Part shown: positions 3,501 through 27,488 of the stretch, in pieces | How positions within the stretch are numbered: the stretch's first letter is position 1 | Layout of the letters: the number at the start of each line of letters is the position of its first letter | From: an uncultured Clostridia bacterium | GTDB taxonomy: Bacteria > Bacillota > Clostridia > TANB77 > CAG-508 | Assembly (NCBI GenBank): GCA_947623285.1 | Contig: CANQGP010000005.1 | Coordinates: 68,757 to 132,756 of the forward strand | Direction: 5' to 3' | Length of the DNA: 64,000 nucleotides | Made by a program: the position numbers and the translations under genes | The notes under the pieces: generated by a model | Databases searched by the model: none | What the model was told of the DNA's origin: nothing | What the model saw: the letters and a program-made list of their open reading frames with translations, nothing else

Positions 3501-4916
3501 TCAAACTTGTTTTCCTCTTAAATACCACATATGTTCTGAAACTATCTTTAGATTTATTATCTCATTAATTAAATCATCTTTTCCTTCGAATATAACAACT
3601 TTGTTGCTGTCAGTTCTACCTGTTAACATATTTTCATTGTTTTTACTTTTTCCTTCTACTAATACTTTTTGAATAGTATTTATATATTTTTGATTGTTTT
3701 CAGCTATTTGACTTTCTACTAATTCTTTTAACCTATTGAAACGTTTATGTTTTATTTCATCTGGAATTTGTTTTTCCATTTTATCTCCTGGTGTTCCTAT
3801 TCTTCTTGAATAAATAAACATATATACTTGTTCAAAATGTACTTTTTTCACTACATCTAATGTATCTTCAAAATCCTCTTCTGTTTCACCAGGGAAACCT
3901 ACTATAATGTCTGTTGATAGTGTTAAATTTGGTATTCTTGTTTTCATTTTTTCTACCAAATTCAAATATTGTTGTTTTGTATATTTTCTATTCATTACTC
4001 TTAATACTTCTGTACTTCCTGATTGAAGTGGCAAATGTATTAATTTACATACTTTATCACATTTTGCAATTTGCTCTATTACATCATCTGTAAAATCTTT
4101 TGGATGTGGAGATACAAAACGAATTCTTTCTATTCCATCCACTTTATTTATCGCATGCAACAATGTTGCAAAAGAATTTATACCTTCATATTCTTCAAAT
4201 TGTATGTTGTTTTCTCTTTCAACTCTCAAATATGAATTAACATTTTGCCCAAGTAAAGTTATTTCTTTGTATCCTTGTTTTGCAAGCTCTTTTATTTCCT
4301 CCATTATGTCTTTTGGCATTCTACTTCTTTCACGTCCACGTACATATGGAACTATGCAATAACTACAAAAATTATTGCAACCATTCATTATAGTAACAGA
4401 TGCTTTTACACTACTATCTCTTTTTATTGGCAATCCCTCATACACTTTTCCTTCTATATCTAAAATGTCTGTTAATTTATTTTTTTCTTCTATTACTCTA
4501 TATAAATCTTCAGGAAATTTATGTAATGTATGTGTTCCAAATAACATATCAACAAATGGATAACTTTCTTTTATTTTTCTAGTTATATGCTTCTCTTGCA
4601 TCATACATCCACCAATTGCAACAATTGTTCCTCTTTTTTCTTTTAAATGCTTTAATTCTCCTAGCTTCCCAAAAAGCCTATCCTCCGCATTTTCTCTAAC
4701 GCAACATGTGTTGATAACTGCTAGGTCAACTTCTTCTGGATTTGTAGCTTTTACATATCCCATTTGCTCTATCATTCCACATAGTTTTTCTGAATCATTT
4801 TCGTTTTGTTGACATCCCATTGTTAATATGCTATATGTTAGCTTTTTATCTTTATTTAATTCTTTTACTTTTTCTATATATTGTTTTTGTTGTTCTATTT
4901 CTTTTGATATTTTCAA
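3501..4916 (-). CDS. miaB: tRNA (N6-isopentenyl-adenosine-37) methylthiotransferase MiaB (radical SAM)
   Basis: 471 aa. UPF0004 N-domain (TMGCQQNENDSE), radical-SAM CxxxCxxC (CNNFCSYC) and a C-terminal TRAM-like region. Classic position upstream of mutS. The start codon is TTG (complement of 4914-4916), preceded by AAGGAA. Confidence 0.85.
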   Translation of the reverse strand: MKISKEIEQQKQYIEKVKELNKDKKLTYSILTMGCQQNENDSEKLCGMIEQMGYVKATNPEEVDLAVINTCCVRENAEDRLFGKLGELKHLKEKRGTIVAIGGCMMQEKHITRKIKESYPFVDMLFGTHTLHKFPEDLYRVIEEKNKLTDILDIEGKVYEGLPIKRDSSVKASVTIMNGCNNFCSYCIVPYVRGRERSRMPKDIMEEIKELAKQGYKEITLLGQNVNSYLRVERENNIQFEEYEGINSFATLLHAINKVDGIERIRFVSPHPKDFTDDVIEQIAKCDKVCKLIHLPLQSGSTEVLRVMNRKYTKQQYLNLVEKMKTRIPNLTLSTDIIVGFPGETEEDFEDTLDVVKKVHFEQVYMFIYSRRIGTPGDKMEKQIPDEIKHKRFNRLKELVESQIAENNQKYINTIQKVLVEGKSKNNENMLTGRTDSNKVVIFEGKDDLINEIINLKIVSEHMWYLRGKQV

Positions 4917-4932
4917 TTTATAACATTTCCTT

Positions 4933-5108
4933 ATAATAAATTTAGGTTTTTTAAGGTTTTACCTATAAACCTCTGCTTACTTTATTTTTAATAACAAATT
5001 CAGGTTTTTATTAAGCTTTTTCCTATAATTTTTTATTATTCTTATCTTTAATAGCAAATTTAATTTTATTAAGCTTTTTTCTATAAACTTTTATTTTCTT
5101 TATACTTA
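4933..5108. repeat. three degenerate head-to-tail repeats of ~58-60 bp in the miaB / 5269-gene divergent intergenic region
   Basis: Units at 4933-4990, 4991-5050 and 5051-~5108 share the frame ATARCAAATTYAGGTTTTTATTAAGCTTTTTCCTATAA..TTTTATT..CTTA.CTTTA. Confidence 0.7.
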
Positions 5109-7457: not shown

Positions 7458-9236
7458 CTAATCTGCAATATTTAGATTATTAAAACCAGTTAAATTTATA
7501 CTTTTCCCTGCTACATCAGAATAGTTGATTTGCACTTTATCACCTTCTCTTGTAACAGGTAACTCCTCTGATATCAAATAAGACGCAATGTATAGGCTTG
7601 ACATATTATTATCTAGAATCAGATAATAATATGTGTTACCATTCTCTATATTATTACTTATTCTTGTGACAGTTCCTACTTTTTCATTGTCGCTTAACTC
7701 ACTAGAAAAATCTACTTTTCTTCCACTAGCATTTACAGAATTAATATAATCTTTTTTTGTTTCTAAAATAGTATCTCCTACTTCAACAATACTATAATCC
7801 TCAATGTTAATCATAGCATATTGTTTTACTAATCCTGCATCATCCTTCAATGTACAGAAATATGTAGGTATTCCTGATATGTTGAGTGGAATGGGAGTTG
7901 TGGCAGAAAAATGCATATTTTGCACTTTTCCTTCTGCACTTGACATTGCTGAAGTTTCAGTTGCACCGACCATGCGATACATCTTCGCTTCTTTTGTCCT
8001 TGTGTTTATCAGAGCAAAGCCCACGGTTCCATTATCAGCTCCAACGGATGATAATCCTGTATAATAATAGCAATTACCATCATTATAAACAGTTGTTATG
8101 TGTTCCGTTACTGAGAGTTCATCTTTATTAGAAAGGTTCATGGGTCCATGAACAAATTTCCCATAATTTTCTAATTGATTTCTTATGAACTCTTCCGGCT
8201 GAATAATGTCTATCCATTCCGGTGCATCCTCTATGCTATATTCTTTGCACTCTCCATTTTTAGGATTACAAACAATTACTCCAGTTGCTTCTGGGGTAGA
8301 CCAAAGTATTGTATTTTCATATGTTGTTATAACCCAAAATGGATTGCCATTATCATCCAATTCAAAGGAAAATTCTGTTAATCCTTGGGTAAGAAAACCA
8401 CTAAGCCTAATGTGTCTTCTTAAATCATCCATAAAAAAGGCACTGTCTAAAAACTTTATTTTTTCATCAACCAGTTCTACATCATTAGGGTTTGTAGCAC
8501 TAACTTTTATAAAACCAGGAGTTCCTTCTTGATTGTTTAACCATTTAAAGAAACCTCTATGTTCCAATGGTGCTACATACATTAGCTCGCCGTTAACAGC
8601 TTGCTTGTTGGTGTATTGACCAACTTCAGCTTGAGAACCCAATGCTAATTGTTCTCCTAATTTTTTGTCTCCTATAACATCAGCTAATGCTATATCCACA
8701 ATTGGAATTTGAGTATTGTCAATTTCTACAATATCTTCAGTGAAAGATTTTTGTTCTATATTTCCAATTTGATTATACATTTTATTTGAGTTAAACCAAC
8801 TGGAACTTATAAATCCTCCTAGCATGACTGTTATAAAAAACAATAACATTAATATTATAAAGCTATCTGTGTTAAAATTTTCAAAATCTTCAATAGATCG
8901 TTTTACCTTTATTATAAATATTATAACAACACTTATACCTATTATCGCATATAGTGAAGACCATAGTGGCGACCGTGTAGGAATTAATGATAAAAGTAAT
9001 ATTATAATGTCTTCTAAAAGTATCTCTCCAACCCATTTCCACACTTCTATATGTATACCTTCTTTTATATATGTCCACCACATCTCAACTATTAGTACCA
9101 ATAGTAATAGTCCTGTGATTATATATACATAACCAGATATGAATCCCAAACTCAAAGGTGGCAAAAAAGCTAGATAAATTATTATATACAATGCCATTAT
9201 TCCTACAGTATTTGATATTGCTCTAATCAATTTCAA
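7458..9236 (-). CDS. polytopic membrane protein with a large (~430 aa) extracytoplasmic domain, family not recognised
   Basis: 592 aa. About 5 hydrophobic helices in the first ~160 aa, then a soluble Cys-containing domain. TTG start (complement of 9234-9236) with GGAGG 4 nt upstream. Lies directly downstream of, and co-oriented with, the giant ORF. Confidence 0.7.
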   Translation of the reverse strand: MKLIRAISNTVGIMALYIIIYLAFLPPLSLGFISGYVYIITGLLLLVLIVEMWWTYIKEGIHIEVWKWVGEILLEDIIILLLSLIPTRSPLWSSLYAIIGISVVIIFIIKVKRSIEDFENFNTDSFIILMLLFFITVMLGGFISSSWFNSNKMYNQIGNIEQKSFTEDIVEIDNTQIPIVDIALADVIGDKKLGEQLALGSQAEVGQYTNKQAVNGELMYVAPLEHRGFFKWLNNQEGTPGFIKVSATNPNDVELVDEKIKFLDSAFFMDDLRRHIRLSGFLTQGLTEFSFELDDNGNPFWVITTYENTILWSTPEATGVIVCNPKNGECKEYSIEDAPEWIDIIQPEEFIRNQLENYGKFVHGPMNLSNKDELSVTEHITTVYNDGNCYYYTGLSSVGADNGTVGFALINTRTKEAKMYRMVGATETSAMSSAEGKVQNMHFSATTPIPLNISGIPTYFCTLKDDAGLVKQYAMINIEDYSIVEVGDTILETKKDYINSVNASGRKVDFSSELSDNEKVGTVTRISNNIENGNTYYYLILDNNMSSLYIASYLISEELPVTREGDKVQINYSDVAGKSINLTGFNNLNIAD

Positions 9237-9422: not shown

Positions 9423-12400
9423 TTATTCAGCATTATTATCTGTATCAGTCGTTTGTGTAAATGGATCTATTGTAAAGTCATTTGTATCACTTCTTATTTG
9501 TCTGAAATATTTTCTCTTAACTTCTGTACTTCTAGTAGCTTTTTTGTCTCCTGCATCTGCATCTTGTTTCAATGCTGCTAAATACTCATCGTAGAATTCT
9601 TTTCCGTCTACATAAAGACCTTTTTCGTTTACGTATTTTTTAAGTCTATCATATCTATTTTTCTTATATTTTTGGTATGTCATTTCTTCATCACCTGTTA
9701 TATATCTTAGTGCTGTTAAGTCTGTAGTTGTTGTATTTCTGTTACCATTTTCTTTTTCTGAGATATAGTAAGCAGAGTAGTAAGCAACCATACCATCTAT
9801 ATATCCTCGTTCTCCTGCCATTTGCCAAGCTAAGTATTTAAAGTTTGCAGCATCTGGACGTCCATTATCCGCATGTGGCTGATACCAATGAAGATTGAAT
9901 ATTGAATCTGTATCAGCACCATTCATTTGCTCTCTATAAGTACTACATCCTGGTTTAAGCATTATTTGGTTAGTCCATAAGTCATCAACACTTTCTAGGT
10001 TCATTGTGCTAAAATCATTTTCTGTTAATGGTGTATAACCAACTACTACATCGCCTGCTCCTTGTTCTTTTTCCTTTGGATAAGATACTTTAACTGATGG
10101 TAGACTTGCTTTTTGTTGATTGCTTAATGATAAGAATGCAGTTCCCGCAATGTAGTCCAAAAAGTCATTTACATCAAAATAATTTTTATAGAAATTCTTT
10201 ATCTTGTCGTCGGTGTCTACTGTTGAACGGTGTAAGTTTTGTGATACATTTTCTTTTATTAATGGTTCTTCATCAAGAACATTTGGGCTAACCCATCCAT
10301 CTCTATAATATTGTTGAATGAATCCTGCCGCATAGTCTTCTCCATCGCCTCTACGTCCATAACCTTTCATGAATATCTTACTATCTTGGTTATGCAATGT
10401 TTCATGTGAAGAAACTCTAAATTCATTTAGCATTGTTCCATTTGCCCACATTACTACATCACCTGTTGCATAAGCTAATCCAGCTGTTCCCGGCCATCTA
10501 TCAACTGCTTCTGCAAAATATTTATGGTATCTATCTTCTGTTGAATATTTATTGTTATAAACTGTTTCTGTTCCTCTGCCTGTATATGTTTTTCTGTAAT
10601 CATACGTACAGTCGCAATAACTATTCATATTACCTATTCCCCAAATATTATAAGCAAATTCATAGAAATATTTAACTTGGTCTGCAAATTTTTCTATTCT
10701 GGCATGTAAGTTTGCCTGTGCTTCTGGAGTTGTTGGGTCTGGCCAATAGCAATATAGTGAACCGAAAAATACTTGTGTTGGTGCACTTATTAAGAACATT
10801 GAATTCTCAGGAACTGTTAAAGCTACTAATATACTATTTTGTACTTTACCATCTATCTTAGCATGGTCTACCATTGAATAGTATACATCTTTACAATCTA
10901 TAGTAACAGTTTTATAAATTCCTCCATGGAACTCATCTTTAAACCAATCATCATTGTCAGTATAGCTTGTAAATCCTTTTATTAGATAGTCTAAGAAGTA
11001 TCCCAAGTTGTCAAGTTTTGTATAAGTCCTTATGTAGTTATTATAGAAGTTTCCTGTTGCATTTGTATTAACATTTGAATCTGATAATAGAAGTTTATCA
11101 GTTAAGTTTTCTAATGTCATTCTTGGGCTAAACAATTCTTTTCCATGGAACATAACTATATCTGATAAGTCCATTCCTTCCATATTGTGACCATACCAAT
11201 AAGTAAAGTAATTGTATGCATATAATAGACGTTTTAATTTTTGTATATTTGCACCTGTAAGTTCTTGTCTTATTTTTGCATCCATTAAATCACTTTCAGT
11301 GTTTGGTGTATATCCCATGTTGATTAATGTTTTTACTACAAAATCTTCAATATTATGCTGAGTTTCTTTTTCAAAGTGCTCTCTGTATAGTCTGCTTTCA
11401 TCAGTTACTGTAAGTGCATTTATATCTGCATATTTGATTTGTGATACTGCTTCTTCGATTTCTTTTATTATATCTGCATTTAAATCTATTACATAATTAT
11501 TATAGTTATAACCAATCTTAAACTCTGATATCATATATGATGCTACATTTCCATAATAATCATCAAAGTCTACATGGTATCTCGCTTTTGTACCATCTTC
11601 AAACATAACTCTAATTGAATCTATGCTGTTGTAATCTTCTGTAGTTAAGTATGAAACCATTTTACCCTCTTTGTTAAATGCAAGAATGTTCTTTATTAAT
11701 TTTTTGCTTAGGTCATTATCATCTGGTATTTTGTTTCCATCATATATTAATTCTTTTGCATCATAGAAAGGCATTAACTTATACATATTGTGGTATGTAA
11801 TTTCTTTATCCTCTTTGTATTCCTTTAGCTTAGATACTCTATTGAAGTCTGGTATATAAACTTCTGGATTTTTTGGTTTACTTCCTTCATCTGTATATGA
11901 AATGCTTTCATTTTTCAATGTAGGTAATTTATCAGCTGAAGTATCTTCTGGTATATTCCAAATATCTTCTGAAAATCCTAATGTGCTAATAAAGAATTCT
12001 CTATTTACATTTTCCTTTTTGATAGTTCTTACTCCACCAACTCCATCTTCATTTTTCTTTGCTGTAGATTCTTCTAATTGGTAGTTGTTCTCAGAGTCAC
12101 TTCCTGGTGCTTTATTATTAGGGTAATATATTGTTCTAGCATTTCCAGCTTTTAGTAAAGATATGTTATTCTTTAATACTGCTCCATTTGGATCATATAT
12201 AACACAACCATTTTTACCTGTGTCTTCTGGCCAACTAGGTGTGAATGCCAAATCAATTATATTATTAGATATTTCAGATTTACTATCAGATTTTCCTATG
12301 AAGCCACCATTTATGTGCCATCCACCGTTTATTGCTCCAGTTATGTAACAGTTTTTAACTTTCGATGATAAAACTTCAAATATAAATCCTGAATCACTCT

Positions 12401-15400
12401 GACCATATCCACCTATACTTCCTATTATATCTGAAACACTACAATTTTCAACAAGTGAATTATTAGATACTTTAGTTGCAATTACTGAACTACCATCTCC
12501 AGGATTAAATGTTGGTCTAACTATTCGAACCCCTCTAATTGTGGTACTTTCTGCTGTGTTTGTAAAAATTGTACCTTTAGATAATAGTTCTGGTTCTTCA
12601 ATTACTAAGTTTTCAATTGTTGCTCCTTTTAATGTGCTAAATAATGATTTCTTCAAATTGTATATTCTATGTCCATTACCTTTTAAAGTTCCTTTAAATT
12701 CAGAATTTACAATTGTTTTTATATTGCTATCATTATTATCGCTATAATTACTTAAGTCATAGTCATGAGTTAATTGAATTTCTTCACCTTGTTGTGCTGC
12801 TTTCATTTTTTCTACTAACATTTTAAATGATTCTGAATATTGATATTCTTTTTCTTTATGCTCTCCTGGAACTTCATCTAATGTAACTTCTAATGGTTTT
12901 AACTCTGTACCTCCATTAAATGCCATAGCATCTGTGTATTGTAGTAATAATATTAGGTGAGAGCCATCTTCAGATGCTTGACAGCTTAGTACGTTACTAT
13001 AGAATTGAGTCATATCTTTCATTATTACTTTAACCATACAGTTTTCAGGGTTTGATAAAGCTTCTTGCGTGATAGTATCTATTTTTTGTGCTACATTTCC
13101 TATTCCATGGGTATATAATTCTATATCCATTATATCTTTCATTTCAATGTACCTTGAATTAACTGTAATAATTTCATAATGTATTCTTTCATTAGCCTTT
13201 GTGTTATCAACAGTTTTTTCTTTGTCTCTATGATATATAGAGTTGATTTCTACAAAGTATTTTCCTGCATCTGTTCTGTCAAATTCAATTGAATTATCTC
13301 CAATTTTTAATCCATCGAAATTATTTGGTGTAATCTCTTCACTATTTTCATCTAGAATTTTCATTGTCAAGCTATCGTTTGCTTGGTCATCATCTTTGAT
13401 TTTCACTCTTAAGTTAACCTTGTTATTATGGTCATCAATTGTATATGTAAAGTCTTCTACTGTTACAGGGTCTTTTAATACTTCGTATTCTTTAAATTTA
13501 CCTGTTTCATCTGTTAACTCAACTTCATTTCCACTATTTAATAAGACTTTATTAAATGTGAATGTGTGTAATCCTGCAGTATCTTCTGCTTTTAATTTAA
13601 CTGTGTATATATCTTCTGCTTTTTCAGCGGTGTAGTCTGTACCATTTATATTAACCTTTTCAGGATAAATATCTGACCACCTTGTTGAACATTTATATGT
13701 TAGTTTTAAATCTTCACCTTTTTCAAAGTAATTAGTTTCTTCACCTTTTGAATTGTAAAGCTTCATATCGTCAAATTTTATATCATATTTTCCTGTGTAT
13801 ATAAATTGCTTTTTAAATATTGTTTCATCTGTATAATTGTTGTCGTCACCTTGAACTTCTAATTTATCTGAATCTAAGTCATATTTACCTTTTATTTCAA
13901 AATCTAATATTTCATCTGCGTGTTCAATGTCAGCCTCAATTTCATTATCTTCATCTAATCTTACAGAAAACTTCTTTCCATCTACTAATGCATAAATATC
14001 ATCATCGGTTGATATAACATTATCTGGGTCATCAAGTCGGAATTTAAATTTAACTTTATTTTGACCTAATTCATTTTCAGTCGTGAAGTTTGTAACTTGT
14101 GGTTTATCTTTTAGTACATCTATTTTGTCAGTTCTTTCAAAATCCACTTCTTTTCCATTTGAGTAGATAACTTTTGATACTACAATATCTTCAACTCCGT
14201 CATTGTCTTGTGCTGTGTAGTATATTCTATATTTATCATTTCCATATTTTTGTTGATTTTCATCTAAGTCTTCACTATCCAATGTTTCTACATCATATTC
14301 TTTATTATTTATTACCATTTTTGAAATGCTAACTGCACTATCTATGTTTGAATGGTCTTCTGCATCTATTCTTACAACTTCTGTACTACTTATGTTGTAT
14401 ATAATTCCAAATGTCTCTCCTTTTGTTGGATATTTATTATATGTCGCTCCTAAAATAGATGTTGTTATACTTGATTGGTGAGTTTGATCATATCCAGTCC
14501 AGTCAATAGTGTAATCAGACCATCCTGGCATTCCGTATACTTTAGCAGTCACTATTAAGCGATACGTCGATGTAGGTGGATCAGGTATATCAAATGTAAC
14601 ATTTTTCTGCTCAGGGCTTATTTCCTGTCTTCCAATCTCTGCATTGCTTGAATCTTGTAAAATAAATGTAAGATTTGATGCTAACTCCTTAGCAGGATCT
14701 ACTATATTATAAGTAAACGTTACTGTTCCTTCCTGAGTATCCTCTGAGAAGCCTACTAGGTTGAATGTTGGATCAACTGGTTCAAGCATAACGACAGCAA
14801 TTTCATCTACATCGTAAGCATATCCGTTTTCAAGTATTAGTGTTTCATAATGAAATTTAGTTTGACCACCTTGAGGTATATATTTTAGTCGATATTGTGT
14901 TCTTTCATCATCGTCATTTTCATCAACATGGATGCTAACAGGATATTCTTTTCCATCAATAATTACTTTTTTTACTATGTCGTCTGTTCCTGTAGAGCAA
15001 TAGAATTCTACATTAGTTTCAACTCCAAGTGGCATTGGATAATATTTAATCTTATCTTCAAAACTAAAATTATATTGTTTAACTCCAGTTAATTTAACAA
15101 CATCTTCAAATATTTGCGTTGTTTTAATATATTCTGATTCTTCACTATCTTCTTCATCAGTTGCTATTGTTTTTGCTTCGTTTTTATTTCCAATAAACAT
15201 ACTTAATAATCTTTGAAGTATATTTTCTTCTGGAGCATCTGGTCTCAAATCATAAGTTGCTGTTGCACTTATTTTATATTTCTTTTGTTCCGTCATTCCT
15301 AAAGCATCTAATTTCATTTCATATTCTGTATATCCATCTTTCTTTGTACCATCTTTCACATCTCCTGAACCAATATCATTTTCACCACTTTCATCTTTTA

Positions 15401-18400
15401 CAACTAAGTGAGGATATTGTGTTTTTGATAATGCTCCATCTGCATCATTTATTCTAAACGTTGCTTTTCCATGTTCTTCATCTATTGCAAAACGTACCAA
15501 TGTTGGTGCATCTCTTAATACTTTTATAGGAACTTGTTCAACACCGTCGTTGTACTGTAATCTCGTTTTTCCATCACTTCCATTAATCAAATTGCTACCT
15601 ATTTGTACTGCTGTTACTTTTTGTGGATACACTCCTGCCCCATTTGGAGCTGTTAATTTAACTTTGTAAGTATCTGGAATTACCTTTTTATCTTTGTCCA
15701 GTGCTTTTTCAACACTATAGCCATTATTATCTATGTAAATTTTCTTAACTTCACCATCAATATTTGTATAAATATTATATGTTAATTCAACCTCTTCAGC
15801 TTTTTCTACATATTCCTTATCTATGGTATTACTGTTGATTATAACTTCTGGTGTTGCATTTGTGCTCTTTTCAAATAATTTTTCTTCTTCTAATGTTCCA
15901 TTTCCTATATCCCATACTGCTACTAACTCAATAGAATATATGTTAAATTTTAATTTCTTTATTGATAAAGTATTTGAATTTTCTTCTCCTATGTCAAAGT
16001 CTGTTACTTCAACTGTTTGAGCAATTGTTCCAGCACTTCTTCTCATATTTATTTTTAAGCTTTTTACAGCTTTATCTGGGTCTGTTAATGTGTAATCAAT
16101 TTTTGCATTGTCATATTCCTCGTAAATATCAGATGTAGGTGTTGCAGTTGGAGTTATATTTTTATATACATATGTCAATGGACGTTCAATTGGAAATTCT
16201 TTGTCTCCAATTTTTGCTACTTGAACTTGAAGTATGTGTTGACCTTTTTCTTTAGGATCTAATTCTAAACTATATACTCCTGTTTTTAAATCTTTCGTAA
16301 CTGTATAAGTTTCTCCATCTATTACAATACCATCAACATCTTGTTCTGACATTTCGGAATTTTCAAATGTTATTTTTACTTTTCCACCTTCTGGAACTCT
16401 TTCAGTTATTTTAAGATTTCTAACTTTAAATCTAGCTCCTTGTTTTATCGTTATATCATCAGTTTTAAATACTTCATCCTTATAATTTTCACTGTCATCA
16501 CTTAAGTTATGCTTGTTTTCAATCTTTAACGTATATGTGATTCCCGGCTCTAACTTACTAAATGTATAGTTATTAGGACCGACATGTATGTTATGTGATT
16601 CTATTAATTTATTATCGTCTTTTCTGGTTAATGTTATTTTACTGTTGCTGTCTAATGTATTATCCGAATCAGTTATATTGAATGAAACAGTTAGATTATC
16701 TCCATTATTTACTGCACTATATTCTCCTATTGTTGGTGCATCTTTTAGAACTGTTATACCTAAAGGTTCATTAGGTTCTATTGTAATATTATTTTTTGAA
16801 ATAGTCTTATTTCCTGTTAAGATGACATCTCCTATCTCAAATTTCTGTTGTCCAGCTTTCTTTCCTACTACTAAATCTATATAATATTCATTTTCTATAC
16901 CTTCCACTTGGTGGATTTCATGAGGTACTGCTGAAGTGCTATCAGCACTATCATCACTAATATCTTTTATATATAATTTTTCTGGTTTAAGTTGTGTTTT
17001 GTTTGTACTGTTGAATTTTAATCTTATCTGTTGAGTTTTGTTCGCATATCTTAATGGTGCATCAGTTTCTTTATCAACAATTTTTAAGTTGTTCAATTCT
17101 AACCCTAAATCTGATGTTAACATGAATTGGTGAACTGCTGTTTTTGATGATGTGTTTCTATCTTCAGTCTCTGTTATCTGGTCAGTATCCAAATCATAGT
17201 CAATTTGTACATTTAGGTTATGCATTATATCCTTTTGGTCTACTTTAACTGAGAAACTATGTGTACTAGTACCTTTTGCTTCAAGATTTTGTACATGTTC
17301 AAGTGTTTCAGCTTTTCCACCAGTCATCGCTTTGTCATCATCTGTTACATGTATATTAAACATAACTACGTCTTGCTCTAAATAGTCTACTGAATTTATT
17401 TCAAAGGTAGGTTCATCTTTTAATACATCTATTGTAGTTACATAAGAAGGCTCTAATGTTACATCTAAATTATCCTCATAACAAATTTTGTCTACTTCTA
17501 TACTTTGTATTCCAGCTGTTTCATTTACTTTATATCCCATGATTTTATACTTGCCTGGTTCTTCAGTTGCCTCTAACTTATATTCTTGGTCATTATCCAT
17601 AAGTAGTTTTATTGGAGCTTTGTTTATATTTGATGGTATAGTATATGTAATGTCTATTGTGGTTCCTTTATTAGGATAAATATTTGATGGAATACCTTCT
17701 ATAATCTTAGAATCTGGTGTTATTTCAATTTCTTCAGTTGTTTTTGCAAGCTCTTCATCTGTATGGGTCTCCCCATCTGCTAAGTCAAATTCTCCTTTAA
17801 TTACTATATTATATTTTCCTGGTTCTGTAATATCAAATGTATGGTCTCTTTCATTTAAGTAATTATTAACTATGTAGTCAGTAGCTACAGTACCGTCTTT
17901 TCTTTGTAACTCTATTTTTAAATTTTTCAATGTACTATCTTCATCAGTAACATTATATGTTACTTTTATATGTTGATTGTCCGTTACTTCTATTTGAACA
18001 TCATTTACTTCAGGTTTTGTTCTAAATATTGTAGTTTCAATAGGTTCATCAAGATCTGGTTTTATCTCATTATCCATTGTTACACCAATTAACTTAATAG
18101 ATGTTCTTTTCTTCTCGTTCATAATGTCTTGGGCTATTGGATAATAGAATGTATAACTATCTGTTGCTTCATCGTATGTTGCACTAGTTTCCACTTCCAT
18201 ATTTTCTATTTTTACAGTTGATATTTTATGGTTTATAGCAGATGTTGTTGCCTTAAATTGAAGTTTAGCATTACTTAAAGTTTTATCAATATTTAAAACA
18301 GTCAAGTCAGAAACTTTTACATCATAATCTGTAATTATTTCAACATCATTTGCTGTTCCCATAATGGTTTGTGTATAATGATCACTATTTTCAACTTGTT

Positions 18401-21400
18401 CACTGTCTAAGTCTTGGTCTATTTTTAATTCAACCTTATATTTTTTGTTTTCATCTAATTTAAGTTCATATCTTTGCGCTTCTAATTCTTTGTTTACATC
18501 CATTGTAACAATGTGTTCAGTACCATCTTCTGTATTTTCTGTTGCTTGTATTACACCTTTTACAAAACTTCCATCTGGGTCATTTAAGTCAAATGTTGTA
18601 ACTGCTTTACCTGATGTTGTATCTACCTTAAAGTTTTCTACTGTTAATTGGTCTTTTAAAACATCTACTGTTCCTTTTATACCTTTTTCATTTATAACCT
18701 CTAAATTGTTTAATGTTACATTTTCGATTTTAATTTCTTGTAGTCCTGCTGTTCCATATCCGCTTAGAGCTTCTTTTGTTGTATAAGTCTTTTTATCTGC
18801 AGATCTTTCTAGTTCATAATTTTGACCATTTATGGTTGCATATTCTGGATAATATGAATTTTCTTTTCCTCCTTCAATTGAACCTGTGTATGTTTTTGCA
18901 TTAAATGATACTTTAAATTCTTCATTTTTGCCTAAATATCTTGATGGTTCATTTGTATTAGTAGATATCGATTGTATATTAGTTATTTCTAATGATGAAG
19001 GTTCCAATAATGCTGCTCCAATCCTTATTAAAAGATCGTTTTCTTTCTCATTCTCATCCTTGTCACCTAATTCACTGTTCAAAGCGTCTGTATCTAGGTC
19101 ATAAGATGCATATATTTCTACCATACGTACTCTGCCATCAGTTTCTATATTCTTAAATGTAACTTCTTGTTGTGTGCCAATTTCTGTTATTGGAACTTCT
19201 TTTCTGCCCTGGTCATCTTGATAATCTGCATAGCGTATATATGCTTTAATCTGATTTTTAGTGTCTTTCAAAATTGTATTTTCATCATCCATTAATTTGA
19301 ACTTGAAGGTTATTGATCGGTCATCATAATTATCATCTATTTCGAAATTTCCTTTAGTAAATGGAACATATGGTTTAGATTTCAATACTTCTATTTTGGT
19401 TGAGATTTTTTCAATAGTAATCTCATCATCTTCATACTTAACTTTGTTTACTTCTAATTCTTTAACACCTGCCTCTTTTGGTGAAACATATGTTATTTGG
19501 TACTTGTCATCTCCTATAGAATCTGCCGGATATTCTTGTTCTCCTATAAATATACCTGTAATTGGCATTTCAGTATTGTCTGTTGCTTTAAATGTTATAG
19601 TTACTGGTTTTCCTTTTTCAGGATAATGTGTATCAATACTATCAAATGCTAAAGAGGCAGTTATTTTTAATTGGAAGTTTTGTTTAAATATTTGTGATAA
19701 ATCATAAAGGTTTTGTTTATCCTGCTCACTTCCACCTCTGTTATATGTTCCTGATAATTTTAATTCATATACTGTTTCTTCATTAAATTCTGAACCAGAT
19801 AAGTCAATAGTATTTGTGCCCCATTCTAATTTTTGTTCTTTTTTACTTTCATTGCCACTATATATCGAAACAGTTCCATTCAAGTCATCATTTTCCTTAT
19901 CATTTCCATTGTTTCCGTCGTTTAATTCAAATGTAATCTGTTTTTTATTTGTATCTAAGTTATAATCTTTTACTTCTGGTTTATTCTTTAATACATAAAT
20001 GCTTGCTACACTATTGTTTGCTTGATTTTCATCCAATGTAACAGTAGTATTTCCAAACTTTATAGCTTTAACTTTATATGTTTTTTCACCTTTTTCTTGA
20101 GGAGCTGTTAGTGTTGCTTTATATGTATTTCCTGCTTCTTCTACTAGAGTACATTCTTCATCTTCGCCCTCTATACTTATTGCTGTTGGTTTTTCAATTG
20201 TATTTGCTGTTATTTCATATTTAAGTGTTACCTTTTCTCCTTTTTCTTTGAATTTGTTTTCGTCTTCATTTACATATTTTATTTGTGCTTTTAATCCAAT
20301 GTTGCAATTTTTTATCTCTCCTATCGGTTCTTGTATATGATTTTCTCCGTCAACACAATCAAAGTCTGCAACAAATTGGACATCATAATTTCCAACATTT
20401 TTTATATCTGGGAAAATTACTTCTTTTTGAGCTTTGTTTTCAATATTCACTATTGTACTTTCTTCAGTTCCTTGTTTATTTGCTATTGCTTTTATATTTT
20501 TTGCAATATCTGCTTCATCAGTTAGTGTATATGTTACATATAAACCATCATTTTTTGCTTCATATGAAATGTCTGTTACTTCTGGCTTTTGCTTATATAT
20601 CTCAAATGAATTGTCTTCTTTTAATGCAATTGTAATATCTTTACTATAATCTAAAGTTATAGAAGTTATTGTTATTTGTTGATTTTCTCTTTCTTTAAGT
20701 TTTATAACAGCAGTATATGTATTTTCTGGCTCGTTAAGTTTTGTTACTGTTATTTCTTTGCTATCATCTTCTATTTGGTTACCTTCTACTGTTATTTTTC
20801 TAACATCTAAGTTTAGAGAGTTTGTGCTTGTGAATGTAATTGTTACGTCTTTGTTTTCAACTTTAACATCTTGTATCTCAATAGATGCATCACGTTCTGC
20901 TATTATATTTATTGTTTTTTTACTTAAGATTTCTGATAATTGATGTATATTTTGAGTAACATCCCCTATATCATCTCTATCATAAGTTCCTTCTAGTGTT
21001 ACTTCATATATTCCTGTTGCTAAGTCTCTTAAATCGATTGTTGTCTCTGCTGTATCTAGTTCTTCTTGTATTGTAGTGTTAAGTGTTGCTTCTTTTTTGG
21101 TATCTTCTTCTCCTTGTTTTTTAATTATTACTTTTGCTCCATTTATGATTGCACCATCCGGATTTTTTAATCCAATTGTTAATGACGGTTCTTCTGCATA
21201 TTCATCAAAGTCGAATTTTTCTATTGATGGTGTATCTTTTAATACATAATATTTAACATCTTCTGTAGAATTCTCAATCATACCTGTATGACCTTCATAC
21301 ATAACTGATGTTACATTAATTGATTGTTCTCCACAAGTTGCTCCTGCTGGAACTTCTGCAATGTAAGAACCATCATCTTGTTTTTCTAATGTGCAGTAAA

Positions 21401-24400
21401 CACTTCCTACTGTTATTCCTGATGGAGTACTACCATTGTTTGAACTAAACTCATATTTTACTTTAACTTTTGAATTTTTCTCAACATAGTAATCTGATAC
21501 AAGTTCAGCACTAGTTAAAGTTACTTTTGTATTAACTATTACTTTATCTGAACCTATTTCTTCATTCGTATGAGTTTCTCCGTCATATCTTTCATAATTT
21601 GCTAATATTTGTACTGTATATTCTCCTGCTTTAAATACATCAGCATTTGGAGATGCAAACTCAACTTCCTTTGTAGTTTTGTCTATCGTTTTTGTAGATA
21701 AAGCTTCTCCTGAAGGGTTAAGTAGTTTTGCTGTTAATCCTTCTGGAGTTGTAATCGTTTCATCATTATCTTTTATATTTATTGTAGCTTTTATTTGTTT
21801 TTGTTCTTGATCTGTAATCTCGGCACTTACTTCCGCTATTGGTACGGTTTTAAACACTATAACTTGCTCTTTCAAATCATTAAACTCTTTTAAGTTGTTT
21901 AATTTAGCTTGTTCTAATTTCAATTCTGTTCTTTCTTCATTGTCGTATGGAACTGTTACAATGTATTTAGTCATGTTACCATTTTTCTCGTTAGTTTTTT
22001 CAGCACTGTATATTGCTCCATTTATTGTAACTTCTTTTACATAGTAATCTTCATGTTCGTCATTATCTTCTGATGCATTTGAACTATAGAAACTTAGAGT
22101 AATTTTCTTCGCAGTTCTATCTATGCTTTCAACTTGTAGGTTACTCAATTGAAAATTATAATCTTCTATTAATTCAAAATTTTCTCCTGTTATTTTATTT
22201 ATTCCTTGATTCGCTGCATCATCTTTGTCTTCATCTAAATCGTATTTTAACTCAAATGTTAGATTATATTTTGTAAATGATTTTATATTTTTTAGTATAT
22301 GTGCATATGGATTTTCTCCTTTTTCTATTTCTATCTCCTGTGTTGAATTGTCTTTAGTGTTAGTTATTATAATCTTACCACCTATGAATGTATCTTCTTG
22401 GTCTTTTATATCATAGCTTAGAACTGCATTTTCTTCTGAATCATCTACTTTTATGTTTGATACTGTAGGCTTTTCAGATTTTATTACTTCTATATTTAAA
22501 GTATAACTAGCTTCAATTGATTCTCCATCTTCAAAGTTTATATTTGTAACATTCATTTCACGTTTTCCATGATTTTGTGGTGCTATGATTGTTACAGTAT
22601 ATTTTCCGTCTTCTGTTTTAGTTACTTCGCAAGTTTCTCCATCTATTACTAATGCCTTTATTGGTGATTTTGAATTTGTAGATATTGTAAATGTTGCTTC
22701 AAAACCTGAATTTTTATTTACATATCGTGGTGCATCTACTGCCGTAATTGTTGCACTTACTGGCACTTTTACCGTATCACTTGTTACTACTACATTATTT
22801 TGAAGTCCATTTCCATCTTCTGCATCAAAATCTGCTAAAAGTTTTACTGTATAATCACCTGATATATTGCTATCTATGTCGAATGCTACATCATGTGTAG
22901 TAGTTTCTATTTTTTGCGTTTGCAATTCATTTCCTTGACTATCACATAAAACTAATCTTAGATTCTTCGTTATCTCGTCTTTGTCTGTTATATCCAAAGT
23001 TACAGATATTTTATTTGATTCAAATTTTGGAATTATTGCTGCTATAACTTTTTTGAATATCACTACCTTTTTGTCTTCTAATTGAATTTTATGCAAACTA
23101 TTTATAATTACTTCTTCAAGTTTTAATTCTTGTCTTTCTTCACTTTCATCATATGGAATTTCCATTGTATAAGTATCGCCATCTCTTTGTAAATCACTAT
23201 CTTCATACATTGTTCCATTTATTCTTACGGCATTTATGTAATATTCATTACTATCTTCTACTGTTAAATTTGCTGTAAATTGTAGTTTTACTTTATGATT
23301 TGCTTTGTCAAAACTTACTACTTTATAATTTTTTAAATCAAGGTCATAGCTTGACAATAACCTAAATTGTTTATTAACTTCTATGCTATTTTGATGTTCT
23401 GAATCATTTTTCTTGGAATCTAAATCATAAGTAAGACTTATTTCTATATCGTATTGTTGAGATTTCTCGATTCCATTCAATTCAAAACTTAAGTTATTTA
23501 AGTCTTCAAAATCTATTTCTTGATTTGTTTGTTGAACCTTTATTTTTCCACTTACAAATGTACTTTCTGGATCATTCACACTAAATGTGAGAATTGTTTT
23601 ATCTTCATTATTTTTGCCAACTCCTACATCATTTATTTGAGGTATAACATTTCTTAATACATCTACTGTAACAGATGTTTCAGCTACACTTACTGTTTCT
23701 TCTCCATCATAGATTAAACCAGTTAGTTTATACTCTTTATAGCCATAGCTATCTGGTGCTATTAGTGTTGCTTGATATTCGTTTCCTTTTATATGCGTTA
23801 CGTCTACCTCTTCTCCATCTATTACTACTTTCTTCAATTCTTTTGTAGTATTTGCTGTTATTTCATAATTAATTTTTACTTCTGATTTTTTCTCTGCATA
23901 TTCTTTTTCAGCATTTCCTGTTGCACTTGCTTGTATTTCAACTATAGTTTCTGTTGAAGCTATAACTCTACCTATTGTTTCTTCTCCATCTGCTGCGTCA
24001 AAATCCGCAAGAATTTCTACTTTGTATGTTCCTGCTACATAAGCTTCATCATTTTCAAGTGTAAATATCGCTTCACTATTTTCTAGAGGTTTTGTTCCTA
24101 CTATTGTACCATTTTCGTCTGTTAATCTAACTTGTATATTTTCAGCTTTTATTTCTCCATCTTTTACAACAGCTTTAACTTTAATTTGTTTATTGTCATT
24201 TTCTACTCCTGCCGATACTTCTGCAGTTGGTTTATCTTTGAATACTACAATTTTATTTATGTTGTTAAAATCTCTACCAGCTTCAAATCCTTGTAAATTA
24301 TCTAATATAACCTTTTGTAATTCTAATTCTTGTCTTGTAGAATCTTCATATGAAATTTCTACAGTATAGCTATTGTCTCCATTTGCGGTTACTTCATAAT

Positions 24401-27488: not shown

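Follow-up and report, generated by a model that had tools for sequence, protein, structure and literature searches.

To our knowledge, nearly all known M26 peptidases come from streptococci and Gemella, in which they cleave mucosal proteins of the host, IgA1 among them, and are regarded as factors of virulence or colonisation. The subject of this analysis is a giant gene from an uncultured Clostridia bacterium (GTDB lineage Bacteria; Bacillota; Clostridia; TANB77; CAG-508), located on the minus strand at positions 9423..27488 of a 64,000-nucleotide stretch of contig CANQGP010000005.1 (assembly GCA_947623285.1, positions 68,757 to 132,756 of the forward strand), which was analysed as a whole and is called the window below. 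By its RecA, which is 91-96% identical to those of its relatives, the bacterium falls among metagenome-assembled genomes of uncultured Clostridia or Clostridiaceae. The 6,021-residue product of the giant gene is, as judged from its sequence, a member of the MEROPS family M26. The best-supported reading of the protein is an active M26 endopeptidase that would be displayed far from the cell on a semi-rigid stalk, and we assign a probability of about 0.72 to the whole account, namely a functional gene for an N-terminally anchored, stalked M26 surface protease with a fused cohesin/dockerin anchor.

The closest described systems are the streptococcal and Gemella M26 enzymes, i.e., the IgA1 protease (ZmpA), ZmpB, ZmpC, and ZmpD. 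They share with the window protein a homologous and collinear region of ~1,200-1,250 residues bearing HExxH and a downstream Glu, as well as the N-terminal anchoring and the succession of parts, in which a signal peptide and two hydrophobic segments precede a repeat or fibrillar region and then the protease. For the streptococcal Zmp proteins, the order has been given as signal peptide, LPXTG (the sortase motif), two hydrophobic segments, a putative second signal-peptidase site, repeats, and protease (PMC3518915; PMC2225412), and more distant clostridial members of the present family likewise keep an LPXTG before the first hydrophobic segment. Unlike the streptococcal and Gemella enzymes, to which it is 22-25% identical, the window protein has HETLH instead of HEMTH and lacks both LPXTG and the G5 domain, and its host belongs to the gut Clostridia and not to the respiratory and oral streptococci. 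It differs from all characterised M26 members in the cohesin and the dockerin placed before and after a membrane hairpin, in a stalk of 42 domains of two module types outside Pfam, where the known enzymes have a few short repeats, and in its size, being three times longer.

As for the cohesin, the closest module in fold, and weakly in sequence, is that of Clostridium perfringens NagJ (2jh2, 2o4e). As in the glycoside hydrolases NagJ and NagH, the modules would sit on an enzyme acting on host material and not on plant fibre. In C. perfringens, cohesin and dockerin are carried by different secreted enzymes, whereas the window protein has both in one chain around the membrane hairpin. Among cellulosomes, ScaE of Ruminococcus flavefaciens is a sortase-anchored anchoring scaffoldin with a single cohesin. 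Loci of relatives of the window gene resemble such systems in having stand-alone cohesin-LPXTG anchors and adaptors with cohesin and dockerin, following the same logic of anchor, adaptor, and enzyme. The window protein is unlike cellulosome scaffoldins in that it has no carbohydrate-active enzyme (CAZyme) domain or carbohydrate-binding module (CBM), a single cohesin, a peptidase as passenger, and the anchor and the enzyme fused. We rejected the assignment as a cellulosome component, as the giant protein has a single copy each of cohesin and dockerin and lacks CAZyme and CBM domains, and no further cohesin or dockerin occurs in the window. The Salmonella SiiE and RTX adhesins also have a long rod of tandem beta-sandwiches with low identity between neighbours, and the YDLDSD-type acidic motifs at the module ends of the window protein might bind calcium as in those adhesins; the Gram-negative adhesins are secreted by type I systems and have adhesive tips, in contrast to the Sec export, N-terminal membrane anchor, and enzymatic tip predicted for the window protein.

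The first-pass annotation of the window, made from its letters alone, had taken the size and the combination with cohesin and dockerin to be undescribed. Among full-text papers, we found none linking M26 with cohesin or dockerin and none describing a cohesin-hairpin-dockerin cassette, so the claim may hold for the literature; the sequence databases, however, contain a populous family with members of equal or larger size. What the analysis adds is the size of this family, the evidence for selection, and a model for the anchor as a fusion. The parts of the giant protein, from the N- to the C-terminus, are the following:

27423..27488, minus strand: signal peptide, residues 1-22 (MKKTIVAIIFIFIITFSLNVFA, then KEK), with a hydropathy peak of 2.54
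27042..27410, minus strand: cohesin, residues 27-149 (Pfam PF00963, E 9.2e-10, 39.3 bits against a cut-off of 24.1)
26790..26948, minus strand: membrane hairpin predicted from hydropathy, with a first transmembrane segment (TM1, residues 181-200), a loop (residues 201-211), and a second transmembrane segment (TM2, residues 212-233)
26589..26777, minus strand: dockerin, residues 238-300, beginning 4 residues past TM2 (borderline score for Pfam PF00404; calcium-loop motifs)
26337..26588, minus strand: low-complexity linker, residues 301-384, rich in Asn/Ser/Gly and then in Pro/Thr, as read from the sequence
13179..26336, minus strand: stalk, residues 385-4770, with 21 tandem A-B pairs giving 42 beta-sandwich domains (hidden Markov models (HMMs) and AlphaFold)
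9426..13178, minus strand: M26 metallopeptidase region, residues 4771-6021 (Pfam, NCBIfam, and PDB searches)
10338..10406, minus strand: zinc site, H5695-E5696-T-L-H5699 and Glu5717, from the alignment with HEMTH...E of solved IgA1 proteases
9423..9425, minus strand: stop codon, with no sorting signal or hydrophobic tail ahead of it in the sequence

The order of signal peptide, cohesin, hairpin, dockerin, linker, stalk, and protease had been proposed in the first-pass annotation, and each of these elements was found again by profile searches, hydropathy, AlphaFold, or reading of the sequence. The predicted HETLH lies at residues 5695-5699 as described, the immunoglobulin-like (Ig-like) stalk estimated at ~4,350 residues comprises about 4,390 residues of beta-sandwich modules, and the catalytic region of ~1,150 residues corresponds to an M26 region of about 1,250 residues. 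The annotation had also pointed out the lack of an LPXTG or a hydrophobic tail at the C-terminus, where hydropathy over the giant protein likewise revealed no such tail, and had rightly likened the protein to the N-terminally tethered pneumococcal M26 proteases (PMC3518915).

The assignment of the C-terminal region to M26 is based on several profiles. Peptidase_M26_N matched at residues ~4743-4987 (profile positions 7-246 of 250) with 55.5 bits against a cut-off of 27.7 and an E of 6e-15, and Peptidase_M26_C at residues 5314-5973 with 98.7 bits against a cut-off of 22 and an E of 3.5e-28. The latter match, which is present also among the precomputed matches, was missed with long query pieces and recovered with a piece of 922 residues. 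The NCBIfam ZmpB model aligned over about 1,217 residues (E 5e-41), but the scores for the ZmpA, ZmpB, and ZmpD models, 112-140 bits, lie below their cut-off of 3,000. Searching the PDB with phmmer retrieved the Streptococcus pneumoniae IgA1 protease (7jgj/6xja, E 1e-34) and the Gemella IgA1P (7uvk, E 4e-33), the latter collinear over residues 79-1263 of the 1,321-residue query. The two zinc-binding His residues, the catalytic Glu, and the downstream Glu are invariant in the alignment of the window protein with four divergent relatives. The G5 domain (PF07501), carried by all the streptococcal and Gemella matches, had no match in any part of the giant protein.

The protein is not an orthologue of the IgA1 protease (ZmpA) as defined in the literature, for which at least ~50% identity to characterised IgA1 proteases is required (PMC9637739); we rejected this assignment based on the identity of 22-25%, the absence of LPXTG and G5, and HETLH in place of HEMTH, and the protein should not go by the name of IgA protease. 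The known M26 substrates are host mucosal proteins, e.g., the IgA1 hinge (PMC9637739; PMC13271334), and most M26 members other than ZmpA are uncharacterised (PMC9637739). By analogy, the substrate is probably a host or luminal glycoprotein rich in Pro, Ser, and Thr, such as an immunoglobulin hinge or a mucin. Because the relatives are of gut origin, secretory immunoglobulins, mucins, and other Pro/Ser/Thr-rich glycoproteins would be reasonable candidates. The protein thereby raises the question which proteins, from the host or from the diet, are cut by commensals of the gut far from their own cells, with secretory IgA, mucins, and other O-glycoproteins as candidates.

The stalk has a period of ~200 residues. 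Iterated HMMs identified 21 A modules of ~90 residues and 18 clear B modules in strict alternation, the remaining three B modules being divergent, and neither module type reached the cut-off of any Pfam family. A comparison of the identities between units revealed a super-repeat of two pairs, odd and even, over the first eleven units. The AlphaFold model of residues 1589-2000 (units 7-8) consists of four beta-sandwiches with a predicted local distance difference test (pLDDT) score of 91.6. With Foldseek, the stalk matched the MG domains of complement C3, the giant adhesin SiiE, and the extender repeats of RTX adhesins. Assuming about 4 nm per domain, the general figure for Ig-like domains, the 42 domains would make a stalk of 150-190 nm, and the enzyme would be held at this distance from the cell.

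Every second B module ends with an acidic YD[LFR]D[SDTE] motif (residues 555, 959, 1354, 1749, 2169, 2796, 3431, and 4536), and alternate B modules terminate in (A/G)D(Y/F)DxxDG. These acidic motifs at the domain junctions may be calcium sites, by analogy with those of the SiiE and RTX adhesins. Unit 18 is ~60 residues longer than the others, with an insert at residues 4080-4110 (about 15159-15251) that combines a short amphipathic segment, ILQRLLSMFIG, with an acidic run. The closest relative has a similar insert at the same place (P0001, residues 70-95), with MSLFKKIMSVF and an acidic run.

The window protein is not a singleton; its family is populous, and it ranks with the largest proteins there. 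When one genome was scanned for each GTDB species, 145 relatives were confirmed by tblastn, 80 of which were kept; these come from metagenome-assembled genomes of rabbit, mouse, wild-mouse, and human guts with labels such as Clostridia, Clostridium, Bacilli, and Tenericutes. Their open reading frames (ORFs) range from about 2,000 to >5,178 residues, several extending past the fetched flank. With the N-terminal 320 residues as the query, exhaustive searching brought up 433 cluster representatives that match the cassette of cohesin, hairpin, and dockerin, and every long complete one carries A/B modules and the M26 region. The number of stalk pairs among the representatives is 1, 4 (the commonest), 7, 10, 16-17, or 22, with lengths of up to 6,181 residues. 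These proteins constitute a large unstudied branch of M26 in uncultured Clostridia of rabbit, mouse, and human guts, with stalks of tunable length from 1 to 22 pairs.

With the C-terminal 1,321 residues as the query for the protease, the best matches were metagenome fragments of ~2,000 residues with 30-46% identity, followed by the streptococcal and Gemella Zmp proteins at 22-24%. A word-indexed search with the N-terminal 320 residues returned just 4 fragments and missed the large family together with P0048, the cluster representative of the giant protein itself. Absence from such a search is therefore weak evidence for low-complexity proteins encoded by AT-rich DNA.

We now turn to the N-terminal cassette. 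The predicted signal peptide has V-F-A at positions -3 to -1, and 'MKK...V.A' is the majority consensus of 52 N-termini of the family. The AlphaFold model of residues 23-310, built with 22 relatives (pLDDT 84.9; predicted template modelling score (pTM) 0.77), contains an all-beta cohesin with a pLDDT of about 88-95. In Foldseek, the best match of this domain was 2jh2, the C. perfringens NagJ cohesin (TM-score 0.77 on the target), and dozens of cohesins from cellulosomes ranked behind it; nearly all of the top 35 matches are cohesins, the exception being a CLIPPER adhesin domain at rank 29. TM1 and TM2, with hydropathy peaks of 3.04 and 2.56, are the sole hydrophobic segments past the signal peptide, and they correspond to AlphaFold helices at residues 184-202 and 208-234 (pLDDT 87-91). 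Since the loop between them is rich in Lys (NKNNKVNKNKK), the positive-inside rule would place it in the cytoplasm and therefore both the cohesin and the dockerin outside. The dockerin has two calcium-loop motifs, DVNNDESTDYED and DTNLDGEISTAD, each followed by a helix; AlphaFold models it as two helices with a pLDDT of about 90, and the Asp, Asn, and Gly columns of the loops are invariant or at least 90% conserved in the 22 relatives. Dockerins of the relatives score 30-44 bits (E 1e-8 to 2e-11), and among the relatives the cohesin is always accompanied by a dockerin, either in cis or in an adjacent gene.

These features suggest the following arrangement. Export would go through Sec, and the cassette, which runs from the signal peptide through the cohesin, TM1, the basic loop on the cytoplasmic side, and TM2 to the dockerin, would keep the protein at the cell. 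In this predicted topology, both modules would be on the outer face, the dockerin immediately next to the membrane and the cohesin tethered by ~30 residues. The disordered linker, rich first in Asn, Ser, and Gly and then in Pro and Thr, would cross the cell wall, for which its length would be sufficient, and the 42-domain stalk would put the catalytic region at the far end. The most likely role of the cohesin-dockerin pair is presumably to keep the very large passenger joined to the N-terminal part that is anchored, either as a clamp across an uncleaved hairpin or, if TM2 is cleaved, as the sole link. Such self-pairing is geometrically plausible because the dockerin is 4 residues away from TM2 and the cohesin is on a tether of ~30 residues. 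The pTM of 0.77 for residues 23-310, above the expectation for independently placed parts, suggests a defined mutual arrangement in the model.

The relatives provide indications of how the cassette might have arisen. Among 114 sequences with a cohesin and a dockerin in one chain, 17 have a strict LPXTG-like motif directly before TM1 (including IPKTG, LPQTG, LPKTG, and LPHTG), and about eight more have a degenerate one. There are also stand-alone proteins in which a signal peptide and a cohesin are followed by LPXTG, a hydrophobic segment, and a basic tail (L022 23047-23757 and several representatives). Because of the LPXTG before TM1 in relatives and of these stand-alone anchors, TM1 and the basic loop appear to be the remnant of a sortase-type sorting signal. 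At 13 split loci, the M26 ORF lacks a cohesin; its first residues are basic, a hydrophobic core and G[VT]IYA come next, and the dockerin follows within ~8 residues. This beginning has the appearance of a normal cleavable signal peptide. In 13 of the 13 cases, a signal peptide, a cohesin, an X module, and a dockerin are encoded by the ORF immediately upstream. Many relatives of the cis form also have G[VT]IYA after TM2 or an Ala directly before the first Asp of the dockerin.

Taken together, the relatives indicate that two units have been fused in the cassette: an anchor protein with a cohesin and, at its C-terminus, a sorting signal, and a secreted enzyme that began with its own signal peptide followed by a dockerin. 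In the anchor half, the hydrophobic segment would have become TM1 and the basic tail the loop, with the LPXTG lost in the clade to which, by sequence, the window protein belongs; in the enzyme half, the basic n-region would be the same loop and the h-region TM2. We put forward only tentatively that the cassette is an undescribed anchoring device born of such a fusion, in which the passenger, after export and in many members after processing by sortase and signal peptidase, would be held on its own N-terminal fragment by the cohesin-dockerin bond. The anchor would bring together, in a single hairpin, elements of the sortase and signal-peptide types and the cohesin-dockerin pairing that is familiar mainly from cellulosomes, and it may account for the way in which M26 proteases with an N-terminal anchor remain attached to the cell. 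If true, the fusion would also account for the N-terminal LPXTG and the two hydrophobic segments of the streptococcal IgA1 protease and Zmp proteins, whose retention after processing rests on models.

Several findings weigh against parts of this account. The dockerin of the window protein is borderline: depending on the query context, it scored 23.5 or 21.6 bits, and the Pfam cut-off is 22.9. The motifs LPxT[GAN], NPxTG, and LPxAG are absent from all 6,021 residues, and there is no convincing small-x-small site past TM2 (ILTISILKTEKT/DVNND), so that processing of the window protein is doubtful. The identity of 22-25% to characterised M26 enzymes weakens any inference on the substrate. Finally, the cassette is found on passengers other than proteases as well, including BNR/sortilin-like and leucine-rich repeat (LRR) proteins, which speaks for a general anchor instead of a protease-specific one. 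We rejected the window protein as a sortase-anchored protein, since TM1 and the basic loop are present but the LPXTG is absent.

According to the first-pass annotation, the anchoring had to come from the N-terminal hairpin. This is too simple, because the relatives show the hairpin to be built from a sorting signal and a signal-peptide-like segment, which makes processing and cohesin-dockerin retention live alternatives. One of these is that TM2 functions as an internal signal peptide and is cut, upon which a passenger of 5,790 residues would start with the dockerin, be held non-covalently by the hairpin-anchored cohesin, and could be shed. We regard this as possible yet doubtful for the window protein. 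Its appeal lies in the M26 proteins of the split loci, whose classical-looking signal peptide ends in G[VT]IYA directly before the dockerin, in the G[VT]IYA or Ala kept at the corresponding place by many cis-form relatives, and in the published streptococcal Zmp model, which has a second signal-peptidase site after the second hydrophobic segment (PMC3518915). The window protein, however, has Glu and Lys where small neutral residues are needed (KTEKT/DVNND), and the sole candidate site, T-I-S/I, falls inside the helix. For this protein, an uncleaved hairpin clamped by cohesin and dockerin is at least as likely as cleavage followed by non-covalent retention.

Alternatively, the hairpin might be a plain uncleaved anchor and the two modules might work in trans, the cohesin displaying dockerin-bearing enzymes and the dockerin binding neighbours or other cohesins, resulting in a cellulosome-like but non-cellulolytic coat. 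The NagJ cohesin module of C. perfringens, the closest structure to the present cohesin, takes part in non-cellulosomal enzyme complexes, and loci of relatives (L021-L024, L029) contain large ORFs with C-terminal dockerins, adaptors with cohesin and dockerin, and sortase-type anchors with a single cohesin. Nevertheless, no other cohesin or dockerin was found in the 64-kb window, and the strict 1:1 co-occurrence in one chain and the membrane-proximal geometry suit self-pairing at least as well. We consider a network in trans to be a tentative proposal with the odds against it.

The loci of split-form relatives (L021 15462-19328; L022 1-5670, 18383-22204, and 23047-23757; L024 14694-23482; L029 19345-19983) contain clusters of large ORFs that end in dockerins, together with cohesin-dockerin adaptors and small single-cohesin anchors of the sortase type. 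Judged by their gene content, these loci would make up a display system resembling a cellulosome, in which enzymes that degrade fibre are not in evidence. In P0157, P0170, and P0196, the cassette accompanies passengers with a BNR/sortilin-like beta-propeller, and it is internal in a 2,056-residue protein, between the LRR and BNR regions. Because it is found on several passengers, the cassette is a portable module, which could serve as a general surface-display module and a useful engineering part. If the anchoring device proposed above is real, gut Clostridia would have a general display system for several kinds of giant surface enzymes.

Returning to the protease at the tip of the anchored stalk, one could argue that the protein is mainly a fibrillar adhesin, with the M26 region as a binding head and not an enzyme. 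The plan of a stalk with a tip is that of fibrillar adhesins, the Foldseek matches of the stalk include adhesin extender domains, and a large adhesin screen gives clusters containing Peptidase_M26_N an ambiguous status, adhesive or catalytic (PMC9210967). Yet the catalytic Glu and the residues that bind zinc are all preserved and do not vary among divergent relatives, the region of ~1,250 residues is collinear with active IgA1 proteases, and between strains there are zero changes in the M26 region as opposed to 123 in the stalk, where the ratio of non-synonymous to synonymous polymorphism (pN/pS) is 0.26. A mainly adhesive role is consequently improbable, and we maintain the reading as an active endopeptidase.

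The strain comparison also bears on the integrity of the frame. At least 7 contigs, assembled independently from different samples and with different assemblers (ENA, Logan, and NCBI), encode the exact 6,021-residue protein, and two further variants in the cluster at 90% identity are likewise exactly 6,021 residues long. The DNA of one variant differs from the window gene by 148 substitutions and 0 indels, with 64 synonymous and 68 non-synonymous codon changes and a pN/pS of 0.27. Tandem Repeats Finder detected no tandem DNA repeats in the gene, the longest direct DNA repeat being 62 nucleotides at 74% identity, and the 21 stalk units have pairwise protein identities of just 16-36%, so repeat collapse or expansion is no concern. 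The giant ORF is a real gene under purifying selection. Even though relatives split into 3,896 and 2,057 residues by a frameshift (contig L001, the closest one) and into 181 and 6,592 residues (L087) indicate that giant genes of this family are sometimes interrupted or mis-assembled, we give practically no credence to the long frame being an assembly product or a decaying pseudogene, given the identical frame on at least 7 contigs, the two variants of the same length, the lack of collapsible repeats, and the pN/pS of 0.27.

At residues 3250-3470 of the stalk (window 17079-17741), the synonymous divergence between two strains is 0.156, compared with 0.016 elsewhere in the stalk and zero for the protease region; the segment has the look of a tract acquired by recombination from a less closely related strain.

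As for the two split relatives, L001 (1-16174) is 46% identical in the protease region and has a dockerin-bearing ORF of 3,896 residues directly upstream of a protease ORF of 2,057 residues in an overlapping frame. The two are probably one gene of ~5,970 residues with a frameshift on a single Logan contig. In L087 (8392-18937; also L088 and L089 from the same sample series), an ORF of 181 residues for a signal peptide and a cohesin is followed, in another frame and with an overlap of ~44 nucleotides, by an ORF of 6,592 residues beginning with TM1, loop, TM2, and dockerin. The frame changes near an A5 run between the cohesin and TM1, and the same 181-residue product is found on 6 contigs; it may be a real split or a slippage-prone site.

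At the DNA level, the gene is a single ORF of 6,021 codons starting with ATG, and its translation has zero internal stops. It covers 18,066 of the 64,000 nucleotides (28.2%) of the window. At the base composition of the window (GC content about 0.29), stops would occur with a per-codon frequency of 0.095, and the chance of 6,021 open codons is ~5e-261, which bears out the initial claim that an uninterrupted 18-kb frame over 28% of the window cannot be accidental. The GC content of the gene, 0.29-0.31, is similar to that of the neighbouring genes, and the opposite strand has no ORF of at least 150 residues across it. Two elements precede the start codon:

27528..27556, minus strand: promoter-like site, TTTACT, a 17-nucleotide spacer, and TAGAAT, with TG ahead of the -10 hexamer (consensus scan, 9/12)
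27498..27504, minus strand: ribosome-binding site AAGGGGA, 9-10 nucleotides ahead of the ATG, as read from the upstream sequence

The first of them, ~40 nucleotides upstream of the start codon, is a candidate promoter by pattern match alone, and no Rfam elements, including riboswitches, were found near the gene. Downstream, at 7458..9236 on the minus strand, lies a gene for a multi-pass protein of 590-592 residues with several N-terminal membrane helices and a large extracytoplasmic part, for which Pfam gave no match at E 1e-4. It is located 3' of the giant gene in all contigs of the same strain. We dropped it as a candidate partner of the giant protein, as it is not adjacent to the relatives of the giant gene and has its own strong promoter-like site (9334-9306, 11/12 consensus matches). 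On one flank, the giant gene is accompanied by MutS, a MiaB-like protein, VanW, and this membrane protein of no assigned function, and on the other by a divergent PBP5-type carboxypeptidase, YtfJ, ScpA, and RecA; the flanking genes are core chromosomal genes of a spore-forming Firmicute.

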